NCBI GenBank assembly: GCA_030538155.1
Contig: JAUNUN010000001.1
Coordinates: forward strand, 18,654 to 82,653
DNA: 64,000 nt
Source: a bacterium
Lineage (GTDB): Bacteria; Desulfobacterota; Desulfobulbia; Desulfobulbales; Desulfobulbaceae
Direction of reading: 5' to 3'
How positions within the stretch are numbered: position 1 is the first letter of the stretch; the number at the start of each line of letters is the position of its first letter. This document shows positions 41,301 through 43,257 of the stretch, piece after piece. Made by a program: the position numbers and the translations under genes. Below the pieces are notes generated by a model. That model did not search any database. It worked only from the letters and a program-made list of their open reading frames with translations, and was not told the DNA's origin.

Positions 41301-41462
41301 CGAATCGCAAATCACTGCCTCGATAGGCTCCTGCAGGGCAGAGTCGGCCCAATCGCCCGGTGCCGCAATTTCTGCCGCGTGCAGCAGTTCTTTCAGGGTA
41401 CGCGGGCCTAGCATACAACTCATATAGTGCTCATCGTTCATCCAGGGTGAGGATACACTCAT
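38325..41462 (-). CDS. murE/murF: Fused MurE (meso-DAP-adding) and MurF (D-Ala-D-Ala-adding) ligase, single 1045-codon ORF
   Basis: The N-terminal half carries GITGTNGKTTTSWL and DNPR. The junction is near ...DDRVEAANALARWNERLLLAATGG... (about 39820). The C-terminal half carries TDSRSLEQGDIFLAFRGERFDGH and AITGSSGKTTVKEM. The start could be 41462, 41441, 41423 or 41414. Confidence 0.9.
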   Translation of the reverse strand: MSVSSPWMNDEHYMSCMLGPRTLKELLHAAEIAAPGDWADSALQEPIEAVICDSRKAAPGSLFVALPGHATAGHLYVEDAVARGCRTVVVEQAVVEQGLLDPALAAQCIPVANAQRALNALAEAWYGYPARQMQCIGITGTNGKTTTSWLIEGMLAHAGIRLGVIGTVNYRYHSPEGVQVVQEASLTTPDALTLQALLRRMVDAGVSHVVMELSSHALVQERIGSMRFHAAVFTNLTRDHLDYHQDMEQYFAAKALLFSAHLAAGATAVIAADVPSEEQSWGERLAWLVQDARILRTGLDSRCDIRAVSLKQGLDGFSCELDTCGRHAHLHSPLVGEYNVRNVLSCVGAGLALGLPLEHICAGIATVKAVPGRLERVLPPGADASLFPSVFVDYAHTPDALDNVLRTLRAVGSGRLICVFGCGGDRDRGKRPLMAQVAATQSDIAVVTSDNPRTEEAERILDDIIPGLAAEHVVFCAMEDLFTQAGPMPRYGRLADRRAAIAKACSLSSPQDTVLIAGKGHEDYQILGREKQYFDDRVEAANALARWNERLLLAATGGKTCDLAEAGQRALLGKICTDSRSLEQGDIFLAFRGERFDGHSFIEQSLASGAGAVIAEEFPESVLTQERALCIQVPDSLAALGNLARFRRQLFSGPLQVAAITGSSGKTTVKEMVSAICTAALSDSWAHQEPVLKTSGNFNNLIGLPLSLLPLQAGHRVAILEMGMNAPGEIAQLTRIADPDIGCVSAVHPAHLQGLGSLDGVAEAKAELFAEMRPSAIRVVNEDDPRIYRRAYASEGPRIGFAVTEAGRRRNPVVRVTRLQNLGETGIRFTLHIGDWSKRLSVPALGEHNAHNCAAAAAIAHAMGIAAGAIAAGLCLYRPMDKRMAVQTLPGGVKLVNDAYNANPASMAAGLRTLAALAAAGKVKGKSMAVLGDMLELGAASSAQHQGIGRLAAELGLDYLALSGLYAQETAQAAQAQGMRADQIHLFDNPAAIGRWCAGLMQKGELSQGDWILVKGSRGMRMERFIEELERLLHTADQPGARHAV

Positions 41463-43257
41463 TCATACCCAAGAGCGCGCTGCCGGCCGGCGGGTACTGG
41501 GCCACGACCTTGCCGCTGCCGCTAAAACTCACCTTCATCTTGTAGGGATCAATCCTTTGCAGGGCCTTGCGCAGACTTAAACCCCGCAGGGCCGGCATGG
41601 CTGCGGCCTGGGCCGCAATTTCCTCGGGCGACCTGGTAACCGCCAGCCGCTTACTGATAAAAAACTGGCGCATATTCTCTTCACTGCGCGGCGGCGGGGC
41701 TTCTACCTGAGCGCTTTGCGGCGGATTTTTCTCAACATAACTTAAAAGATCCCGCCCCAATTGCTCCAGATTGCCCTCCTTTGCGGTTTTTTCTTTTTGC
41801 TCTTCGGGCCGAACCTCATCCTTTTCCACCGCGATGACCAGAAGGTACTGGGGATACTGTGCCGGTGCCAACCCTGCAAAGAGCTGCTGTATGGAATACT
41901 TGCCTGAATCGCCGCCAAAGCCTGTCTGCTCCTTTGCCGCCTGGTACAGGATCTTATTCTCCTTTTCAGAGAGCCAACTGGAAAACAAGTTGCGTCGTAC
42001 CTTGACACTCAAGGCCGGGTCCAGCACATGGGCACGGCCTTCGCCGTCGCTTTTACGGTAAAAACGGGTGCTGCTGGCGTGGTCATAAATCGAATCAACC
42101 ACATAGGGATTGATGCGCCAGCCGCCGTTCACCAGGCTGGCCAGGGTCGCCCCCACCTGCACCCCGGTGACCGCATCCCGTGATCCTTCAAGACTCTCCT
42201 GGGAAGAGCCGCCCTCCCAGTTGTCTGAAACGGAATCATACAGGCGGATGCGGTGCTCAAAGTTATCCAGCATGGCATCTGTAAAGCCATAGTCCGGCGC
42301 GGCCACGGTTACGGGCAAAAGGGGCGAGCCGTCAAGGCCTTCTTTCTCAATTTCAGCGGCACGCACCAGAATGGGGCGGATGAGATCCTTATCGAGCAGA
42401 TGGCTGTAGATCCGGTTGACCCGGTTGCCCTCGTTGGCTTTCCAAAAATAGTTCGGGTTAAAAGAGGGCTGGTTGACCAGGGCGAGGATGCGGCCGCTGC
42501 CCGGTTCAAGCAACAGGCCCATCCCTTTTTCCATGCCCTGGGTCTTGAGATATTCGCGGAAGAGCTGCTCAAGCCGGCGCTGCAAACGAAGATCCAGGGT
42601 CAGGATCAGATCAACCGATTTTGCTCCCAGGCTTTCCCGGCCCTTGAAGTCGATATCGGAGATATTGCTGTTACGTACGATGCGGGAGGCCAAGACCGCG
42701 TCATAGCGTCCTTCCACACCGGCTAGTCCCGCCTGGTCTCCCATAAATCCGAGCACATGCGAGGCAACCGTATGAGACGGATAAAACCGGGTTTCAACCG
42801 GGCGGCACACAACCCCAGGAAGCGCCAGGGCCTCGATCTTGGCGGCCTGGTATTCATCGAGGTCATCCATGAGCGTGACCGTCTGACGGGAGCTTTTCAT
42901 GCTCCCTTCAATCTCCCGTGCAGGCCTGCTGATCACCTCGGAAAGGGATTCCGCAACAGCCTTGTGGTCAGGCACTTCAGCCGGCCGTATGGTTAGAGTA
43001 TAGAGGCGGTAACTCACTGCCAGTTCGTTAAAACGCTGGTCGTAGACCGCCCCTCTCAAAACAGAAACAGCGGGCGCCAAGCCCGCTGAATTATTGGAAA
43101 TTTTGCTGGCAGTCGACTGGATAATCCTGCTGATATCCAGGAGGGAGGGAGGGATTCCATACAGAACAGCCCCAGCCGCTGCCAGCAAAATACCGCCTAA
43201 AACGATCTTCAGACCACGTCGGGTCTTTCTGTTTTTTGCACTGACGACCTTTGCCAT
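41431..43257 (-). CDS. ftsI: FtsI/PBP3-like class B penicillin-binding protein homologue with degenerate catalytic motifs and a C-terminal PASTA-like domain
   Basis: TM anchor (IVLGGILLAAAGAVLYG), PBP dimerisation region (RFYPSHTVASHVLGF), PSFNPN, and a transpeptidase-like region lacking SxxK. The C-terminus (LRGLSLRKALQRI...VVAQYPPAG) is PASTA-like. ATG 43257 has AGGAG 5 nt upstream. Confidence 0.85.
   Translation of the reverse strand: MAKVVSAKNRKTRRGLKIVLGGILLAAAGAVLYGIPPSLLDISRIIQSTASKISNNSAGLAPAVSVLRGAVYDQRFNELAVSYRLYTLTIRPAEVPDHKAVAESLSEVISRPAREIEGSMKSSRQTVTLMDDLDEYQAAKIEALALPGVVCRPVETRFYPSHTVASHVLGFMGDQAGLAGVEGRYDAVLASRIVRNSNISDIDFKGRESLGAKSVDLILTLDLRLQRRLEQLFREYLKTQGMEKGMGLLLEPGSGRILALVNQPSFNPNYFWKANEGNRVNRIYSHLLDKDLIRPILVRAAEIEKEGLDGSPLLPVTVAAPDYGFTDAMLDNFEHRIRLYDSVSDNWEGGSSQESLEGSRDAVTGVQVGATLASLVNGGWRINPYVVDSIYDHASSTRFYRKSDGEGRAHVLDPALSVKVRRNLFSSWLSEKENKILYQAAKEQTGFGGDSGKYSIQQLFAGLAPAQYPQYLLVIAVEKDEVRPEEQKEKTAKEGNLEQLGRDLLSYVEKNPPQSAQVEAPPPRSEENMRQFFISKRLAVTRSPEEIAAQAAAMPALRGLSLRKALQRIDPYKMKVSFSGSGKVVAQYPPAGSALLGMNECILTLDER

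Follow-up and report, generated by a model that had tools for sequence, protein, structure and literature searches.

The FtsW-FtsI pair is regarded as the core and nearly universal synthase of septal peptidoglycan and as a major target of beta-lactams. In the known pairs formed by a SEDS glycan polymerase and a class B penicillin-binding protein (PBP), the membrane anchor and the pedestal of the PBP are the parts that bind the polymerase, activate it, and take up the FtsQLB signal. A catalytic fold devoid of catalytic residues can also serve as a divisome adaptor or activator, as seen for EnvC and NlpD, whose degenerate LytM domains activate amidases. Here, we describe ftsI*, the gene at the ftsI position of the dcw cluster in a 64,000-nucleotide stretch of a Desulfobulbaceae genome (assembly GCA_030538155.1, contig JAUNUN010000001.1, positions 18,654 to 82,653; the whole stretch is hereafter called the window). 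The three catalytic motifs of PBP transpeptidases were not found in its product, and no ftsW gene was found in the cluster. Judging from its sequence, ftsI* is probably a pseudoenzyme that is kept as a divisome adaptor through its non-catalytic parts, and the septal cross-linking would be carried out by another synthase.

Engineered, catalytically inactive variants of Bacillus subtilis PBP2B and Clostridioides difficile SpoVD are reported to sustain division or sporulation if another class B PBP is present (PMC5656894 and PMC12713402, summarised in PMC12516126), and the vegetative septum of C. difficile is reported to be built by a class A PBP (PMC12154710). SpoVD, PBP2B, Streptococcus pneumoniae PBP2x, and Staphylococcus aureus PBP1 have the same pedestal-transpeptidase-PASTA architecture as ftsI*. 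However, they are naturally active and paired with FtsW or SpoVE, whereas ftsI* appears to be naturally and anciently dead throughout an order, and the gene for its SEDS partner is missing. With FtsI/PBP3 of Escherichia coli and Pseudomonas aeruginosa (FtsWIQBL complex, 8bh1), ftsI* shares the position between ftsL and murE, the single N-terminal anchor, the three-motif pedestal, and the fold; it differs from them in the absence of the SxxK, SxN, and KTG motifs, in a shortened transpeptidase domain, in a C-terminal PASTA domain, and in the lack of a cognate ftsW in the cluster. The C. difficile divisome resembles this system in that the septum is reported to be synthesized without a functional FtsW-FtsI pair (PMC12154710). 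Nevertheless, C. difficile keeps an active SpoVD/SpoVE pair for sporulation, whereas the Desulfobulbales are diderm and have a dead FtsI in the dcw cluster. The principle of a dead fold as an adaptor is shared with EnvC and NlpD, the fold and the partner are different, and an activator role of ftsI* could be proposed by analogy only. As a whole, ftsI* appears to descend from, and would work like, a PASTA-bearing class B PBP of the FtsI/SpoVD type, while failing the defining catalytic features.

The catalytic features of class B PBPs are Ser-x-x-Lys, Ser-x-Asn, and Lys-Thr/Ser-Gly on the beta3 strand, and ftsI* has none of them. A preliminary description of this stretch had reported LDKDLIRP at the place where E. 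coli FtsI has its SxxK; this was borne out by the codons (42396-42373), and two alignment methods agreed on the region. In the phmmer alignment with E. coli FtsI (7onw), '..epgstvkp' was paired with '..dk.dlirp'. A 31-sequence profile of the ftsI* family was also aligned, by hhalign, with a 12-sequence profile of motif-intact relatives and E. coli FtsI (probability 100%, E 7.8e-61, 528 columns), and DKDLIRP was placed opposite EPGSTFK. The two registers differ by one residue, with either Asp291/Arg294 or Leu292/Pro295 opposite Ser307/Lys310. Neither of them gives a Ser...Lys pair, and the profile alignment placed no Ser-x-x-Lys at the start of the active-site helix. As had also been reported, the sole SxxK in the whole protein is SLRK at residue 561, within the PASTA domain. 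The earlier claim on SxN was right as to the absence of the motif; however, MLDNF cannot be taken as its degenerate form, since it flanks a deletion. The canonical segment bearing SSN had no counterpart in the hhalign alignment, falling in a 29-column gap between ...GFTDAML and DNFEHRIR..., and it was also a gap in the MAFFT alignment. The KTG box was degenerate as described (AKEQTGFG); the motif scan found zero occurrences of [KH][ST]G in the 608-aa protein, and the Lys of KTG fell in a gap beside YQAAKEQTG. By these sequence features, ftsI* is predicted to be unable to use the PBP acylation mechanism.

The rest of the protein is that of a class B PBP. It has an N-terminal anchor and a PF03717 pedestal with the RGx3DR, RxYP, and GxxGxE motifs (R68-G69..D73, R157-x-Y159-P160, and G177-L178-x-G180-x-E182), together with T220-x-D222...Q226, and in the family alignments these motif residues were invariant or nearly so across the order. 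The Pfam Transpeptidase family (PF00905) was matched with 34.5 bits against a cut-off of 22.1, over profile positions 159-288 only, and the domain is shorter than the canonical one because the SxN segment is deleted. An AlphaFold2 (AF2) model built on the family alignment had a mean pLDDT of 68.9; in Foldseek searches it retrieved PBP2x (top match), PBP3, SpoVD, and S. aureus PBP1 at E 1e-22 to 1e-25. The transpeptidase fold was thus recognised by Pfam, hhalign, and Foldseek. In this moderate-confidence prediction, the helix due to begin at the nucleophile spans residues 282-306, so that it starts approximately nine residues early. When the PDB was searched by sequence, good alignments were limited to residues 63-300, which comprise the pedestal and the beginning of the transpeptidase domain; the matches were SpoVD and the PBP3 of P. 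aeruginosa and E. coli (E 1e-16 to 1e-22). The remainder of the transpeptidase domain scored 1-8 bits. SpoVD was the best match both in NCBIfam and in the PDB (C. difficile SpoVD, 7rcz), and none of the NCBIfam equivalog cut-offs was reached (SpoVD TIGR02214, 110/688 bits; PBP2/MrdA TIGR03423, 104/455 bits; FtsI NF011685, 65/737 bits). The C-terminal domain aligned with the PASTA of the canonical relatives in hhalign. The preliminary description had listed the anchor, the dimerisation region, the transpeptidase-fold similarity, and a PASTA-like tail; all of them were recovered, and the tail is a true PASTA domain above the Pfam gathering score.

The reading frame opens with ATG and is intact over 608 aa. 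An AGGAG ribosome-binding site lies 4 nt upstream of the start, in agreement with the earlier report of an intact frame with a good Shine-Dalgarno sequence. Since this site overlaps the stop codon of ftsL, ftsI* is predicted to be translationally coupled to ftsL. A second, independent assembly (run SRR24915823) carries an identical ftsI* protein.

The loss of the motifs is shared by the relatives, so that the strain-specific artefact considered in the preliminary description was not borne out. The homologue search gave 120 full-length relatives with 50-92% identity, the named ones being Desulfobulbus, including D. propionicus DSM 2032. All of them had x-L-I-R-P at the former SxxK site, with a nearly fixed Arg, and the former nucleophile position varied among S, E, D, G, K, and A. 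S-L-I-R was present in 36 of the 121 sampled sequences; this Ser is no conserved feature of the family, and even where it occurs, the Lys and the other two motifs are missing. When 1.84 billion cluster representatives were searched, 178 matches below 1e-30 were obtained, and canonical motifs were seen in only four of the best 150. The dead forms fell into three subgroups with distinct remnants of the first motif, namely xLIRP in the Desulfobulbaceae, PGGLxxLF in the Desulfurivibrionaceae and Thiovibrio, and LPxxFRxFL in the Desulfocapsaceae (Desulfosediminicola, Desulfopila, Desulfofustis, and Desulfoprunum).

One genome per species was scanned with the alignment of the Desulfobulbaceae subgroup as the only query, and 80 loci were returned. 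These included Desulfobulbus alkaliphilus, D. elongatus, D. rhabdoformis, two Desulfogranum species, and, among the cable bacteria, seven Candidatus Electrothrix and six Candidatus Electronema genomes. SxxK and KTG were missing at the aligned sites in 80 of 80 full-length ftsI* orthologues, a set made up of 77 species loci of the scan, the window, and three loci that were fetched separately, and the strand equivalent to KTG, YQAAKEQ here, was variable among them. Motif loss was seen in more than 80 species and appears to be common to all the sampled families of the Desulfobulbales, that is, the Desulfobulbaceae including the cable bacteria, the Desulfocapsaceae, and the Desulfurivibrionaceae. 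Going by these alignments, the trait is order-wide and old rather than peculiar to one genome. Besides, P0360, P0365, and their relatives (735-758 aa), which have the pedestal and PASTA and no Pfam transpeptidase match, clustered with the dead forms of the Desulfurivibrionaceae type.

The gene order of the window, on the minus strand, is mraZ-rsmH-ftsL-ftsI*-murEF-mraY-murD-murG-murC-murB-ftsQ-ftsA-ftsZ, and a matching order was found in D. propionicus, Thiovibrio, a Desulfurivibrionaceae metagenome-assembled genome (MAG), and Desulfosediminicola. By its place between ftsL and murE, ftsI* is assigned as the positional orthologue of FtsI/PBP3. The murD and murG genes overlap by 13 nt, and the usual ftsW slot (34735-37253) is therefore empty. 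It was also empty in D. propionicus, Thiovibrio frasassiensis, the Desulfurivibrionaceae MAG, Desulfosediminicola ganghwensis, and another Desulfocapsaceae-type genome, and approximately 50 of the 80 species loci hold both murD and murG, at most 422 bp apart. With four SEDS queries, including E. coli FtsW and RodA, tblastn detected no SEDS gene in the 64-kb window (none past E 1e-5) or in 84 Desulfobulbales loci, which were searched up to 10 kb from ftsI*. The only window match below E 0.1 (2.8e-4; 56 aa at 61398-61553) was rejected as a hydrophobic segment in a membrane protein of a secretion or pilus-like cluster (196 aa; ORF 60950-61540), which accounts for this spurious weak resemblance to FtsW.

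The nearest motif-intact relatives (P0371 and P0376) have SxxK, SSN, and KTA or KTG. In their loci, an FTSW_RODA_SPOVE gene lies between murD and murG; as the positive control of the search, it was detected by all four SEDS queries. The canonical relatives keep both ftsW and the motifs, whereas the dead-form loci keep neither; therefore, motif loss and ftsW loss go together, and a cognate FtsW in the same cluster is missing for ftsI* in the window and in the 84 loci. In the literature, Geerlings et al. 2021 (PMC7873302) reported that two Electrothrix and two Desulfobulbus genomes lack ftsW, zipA, and ftsN and carry an mre-pbpA-rodA cluster. No further PBP gene was found in the 64-kb window, in which L,D-transpeptidases were not specifically searched for. 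The absence of ftsW, the order-wide age of the trait, and the ancestry of PASTA, which is taken up below, had not been mentioned in the preliminary description.

The selection acting on ftsI* was estimated by the Nei-Gojobori method from 49 orthologue pairs. The median dN/dS was 0.11 for the pedestal, 0.096 for the transpeptidase-like domain, 0.148 for the linker, and 0.093 for PASTA. By this measure, the dead domain is under no less constraint than the remainder of the protein, and purifying selection appears strong in every domain. The full-length orthologues and a dN/dS of about 0.1 thus indicate that ftsI* is neither an artefact nor in decay. PASTA was the most conserved part across the order, with M554 P555, G559 x S561 L562 R563, G580 x G582, and Q587 x P589 as its order-wide invariants. 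The residues invariant across the three subgroups were those of the pedestal motifs, P264/N269, and, within PASTA, M554 P555, S561 R563, G580 G582, and Q587 P589. The former catalytic domain retained only four nearly invariant positions in the order as a whole, N377, G379, P384, and P465, and so few shared invariants argue against a common alternative catalytic set.

In a neighbour-joining tree of the pedestal, the dead forms grouped apart from the canonical proteins in 67 of 100 bootstraps, which is consistent, with modest support, with a single origin of the dead clade. PASTA was also present in the canonical sister proteins; since these active sisters carry it, PASTA is ancestral. Two otherwise canonical PASTA-bearing FtsI relatives, P0371 (L007 10001-11983) and P0377, have Lys-Thr-Ala in place of Lys-Thr-Gly on beta3.

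Since the anchor and the pedestal are intact and the gene is coupled to ftsL, we infer an adaptor role for ftsI*. The anchor and the pedestal would receive the FtsQ/FtsL signal and would hold or activate a glycan polymerase. This would be RodA, the one SEDS protein still reported for these genomes, or else a class A PBP. PASTA, kept at the right height by the dead domain, would bind to or orient on septal peptidoglycan or its precursors, and septal cross-linking would fall to PBP2, a class A PBP, or an L,D-transpeptidase. The dead FtsI motifs, together with the missing ftsW, mean that the Desulfobulbales must build the septum in a non-standard way. A wider proposal, which we put forward tentatively and stop short of calling probable, is that throughout this order of free-living diderm bacteria, and also in the multicellular cable bacteria that belong to it, cells divide with FtsZ, FtsA, FtsQ, and FtsL, without FtsW or a competent FtsI. 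The dead FtsI would then recruit RodA, as the sole SEDS protein, or a class A PBP for septal synthesis.

Several points weigh against the adaptor role as drawn here. Naming RodA or a class A PBP as the polymerase partner is guesswork. A Ser is kept at the old nucleophile position (SLIR) in about one third of the sampled family, the confidence of the AF2 model is only moderate, and the genome-wide absence of ftsW comes from one paper on four genomes (PMC7873302). Furthermore, the transpeptidase-like domain is tightly conserved within each family-level subgroup and strongly diverged between the subgroups. A pure spacer role does not predict this pattern, so that a lineage-specific binding function is possible, and the domain may have a lineage-specific binding surface.

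Among the other explanations, the one that survives best, although we consider it unlikely, is that ftsI* has no polymerase partner and acts as a PASTA sensor or localisation factor (for un-cross-linked septal peptidoglycan, lipid II, or hydrolase recruitment), with a class A PBP running the septum as in C. difficile. The conservation of PASTA, the highest of any part across the order, would fit such a role; however, the pedestal motifs, the site of SEDS contact and activation in known systems, are as conserved as PASTA, and the active sisters also have PASTA, so that PASTA does not represent a function gained when catalysis was lost. The loss of ftsW (window and 84 loci; PMC7873302) and the precedent of a divisome driven by a class A PBP, as reported for C. 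difficile (PMC12154710), would likewise speak for it, and the retained translational coupling to ftsL speaks against it.

It is improbable that a true active FtsI-FtsW pair is encoded elsewhere in the genome, which would make ftsI* a diverged paralogue with some secondary function. The numbers of class B PBPs do differ widely among bacteria (PMC12516126), and our SEDS survey covered the 64-kb window and 10 kb around the ftsI* loci. Nevertheless, in all the genomes examined ftsI* stands at the place that ftsI ancestrally occupied, dead forms made up almost all of the best 150 cluster representatives, and in the four-genome survey no ftsW was found and the only SEDS-PBP pair described was pbpA-rodA by the mre genes (PMC7873302).

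More improbable still is that ftsI* is an enzyme (a transpeptidase, carboxypeptidase, or hydrolase) with a non-canonical catalytic set, such as Ser-x-x-Arg. Strong purifying selection on the domain, the 36 S-L-I-R sequences, and several polar residues that are invariant within the Desulfobulbus group could be read in this way, but close relatives, like the window protein itself, have D, E, G, K, or A in place of the candidate Ser. Moreover, the SxN segment has been lost by deletion, the strand corresponding to KTG differs among the orthologues, and the only near-invariants, N377, G379, P384, and P465, make an implausible catalytic set. Finally, a decaying pseudogene or a sequencing or assembly artefact of one genome, for which only the weak Pfam Transpeptidase match could be cited, is practically out of the question and is refuted by the conservation and the dN/dS, given the intact frame with its coupled ribosome-binding site, the identical protein from an independent run, the full-length orthologues in 80 species-level genomes, and a dN/dS of about 0.1 in all domains.

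With ftsI* as a probable divisome adaptor, the functions of the pedestal and PASTA alone appear to be sufficient to keep an FtsI gene under selection, and another enzyme must build the septum in these Gram-negative-type cells. PBP3-specific beta-lactams are expected not to stop these organisms from dividing. For the cable bacteria, Geerlings et al. 2021 (PMC7873302) took FtsI activity to be the driver of septal synthesis, and this working assumption would need correction. If ftsI* does redirect RodA or a class A PBP, it would be a natural experiment that parts the scaffolding or activating role of FtsI from its enzymatic role, and the family offers a natural sequence set for mapping the FtsI surfaces that matter apart from catalysis. 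Our literature search found no paper describing the loss of FtsI motifs in the Desulfobulbales, and the order is unmentioned in a 2025 survey of class B PBPs and SEDS proteins across Bacteria. Engineered dead class B PBPs and FtsW-independent divisomes are known; for a naturally dead FtsI that is fixed throughout an order, under selection, and accompanied by the loss of ftsW, no description was found. The features of the window are listed in Table 1.

Table 1. Positions of ftsI*, its parts, and other features in the window
Feature	Position	Strand	Basis or remark
ftsI*, 608-aa class B PBP homologue at the ftsI position of the dcw cluster	41431..43257	-	ORF call, Pfam, motif scan, profile alignment
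N-terminal membrane anchor, residues ~16-35, LKIVLGGILLAAAGAVLYGI	43153..43212	-	hydrophobic stretch in the sequence; AF2 helix 10-32
Pedestal (PBP dimerisation module), residues 63-230	42568..43071	-	Pfam PF03717 (PBP_dimer), E 3e-14
Transpeptidase-like domain without catalytic motifs, residues 231-490	41788..42567	-	Pfam, AF2, Foldseek, profile alignment
LDKDLIRP, putative remnant of the F-E-P-G-S-x-x-K start of the active-site helix	42373..42396	-	codons read directly; phmmer; hhalign
ILYQAAKEQTG, strand that bears KTG in active PBPs	41920..41952	-	no Lys-Thr/Ser-Gly; AF2 strand 435-445
C-terminal PASTA domain, residues 546-608	41434..41622	-	Pfam PF03793, 26.8 bits vs 23.2 cut-off
AGGAG ribosome-binding site of ftsI*	43262..43266	-	overlaps the ftsL stop codon TAG (43265-43267)
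ftsL, 122 aa	43265..43633	-	Pfam FtsL E 1.7e-5, DivIC E 1.6e-4; between rsmH and ftsI*
murE-murF fusion, 1045 aa, immediately downstream of ftsI*	38325..41462	-	single ORF
murD	35826-37253	-	Pfam
murG	34735-35838	-	Pfam
D-Ala-D-Ala ligase, 457 aa	22463-23836		
dsrA- and dsrB-like genes	5142-7623		NIR_SIR/NIR_SIR_ferr
Diadenylate cyclase	15258-16700		DAC, DACND, DACNH
Type II secretion or pilus-like cluster	53637-63120		

A longer ftsI* starting from a TTG at 43365 was considered and rejected, as it would overlap ftsL and is unneeded. In most orthologue pairs, the first 62 codons of ftsI* (~43072-43257) had a dS of 0.02-0.3, compared with 0.2-1.5 elsewhere in the gene. This low dS suggests a nucleotide-level constraint at the ftsL-ftsI junction, which could be translational coupling, an RNA structure, or an overlapping element. 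The ftsL gene was listed as unencoded in most of the surveyed genomes (PMC7873302). An ORF of similar size to the ftsL of the window occupies the same spot in D. propionicus and other Desulfobulbales; in spite of that listing, ftsL is probably present and divergent in the order.

The murE-murF fusion, already described for Desulfobulbus (PMC6420597), was also seen in D. propionicus (L004) and in the Desulfocapsaceae (L089 and L090), but not in Thiovibrio or the Desulfurivibrionaceae (L005 and L006). The D-Ala-D-Ala ligase is encoded outside the dcw cluster, and radical-SAM, histidine-kinase, and MFS genes lie between its gene and ftsZ. The ligase is unusually long; its N-terminal-domain match is in two stretches, the best at residues 194-230, and the C-terminal domain begins at residue 247, which suggests extra N-terminal sequence.

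Elsewhere in the window, two adjacent genes resemble dsrA and dsrB of dissimilatory sulfite reductase, which fits a sulfate-reducing Desulfobulbus. A diadenylate cyclase fused to DACND and DACNH sensor domains adjoins dnaG and rpoD. The type II secretion or pilus-like cluster encodes a T2SS F protein, a GspD-type secretin with a TPR tail, and GspL/M-like membrane proteins.

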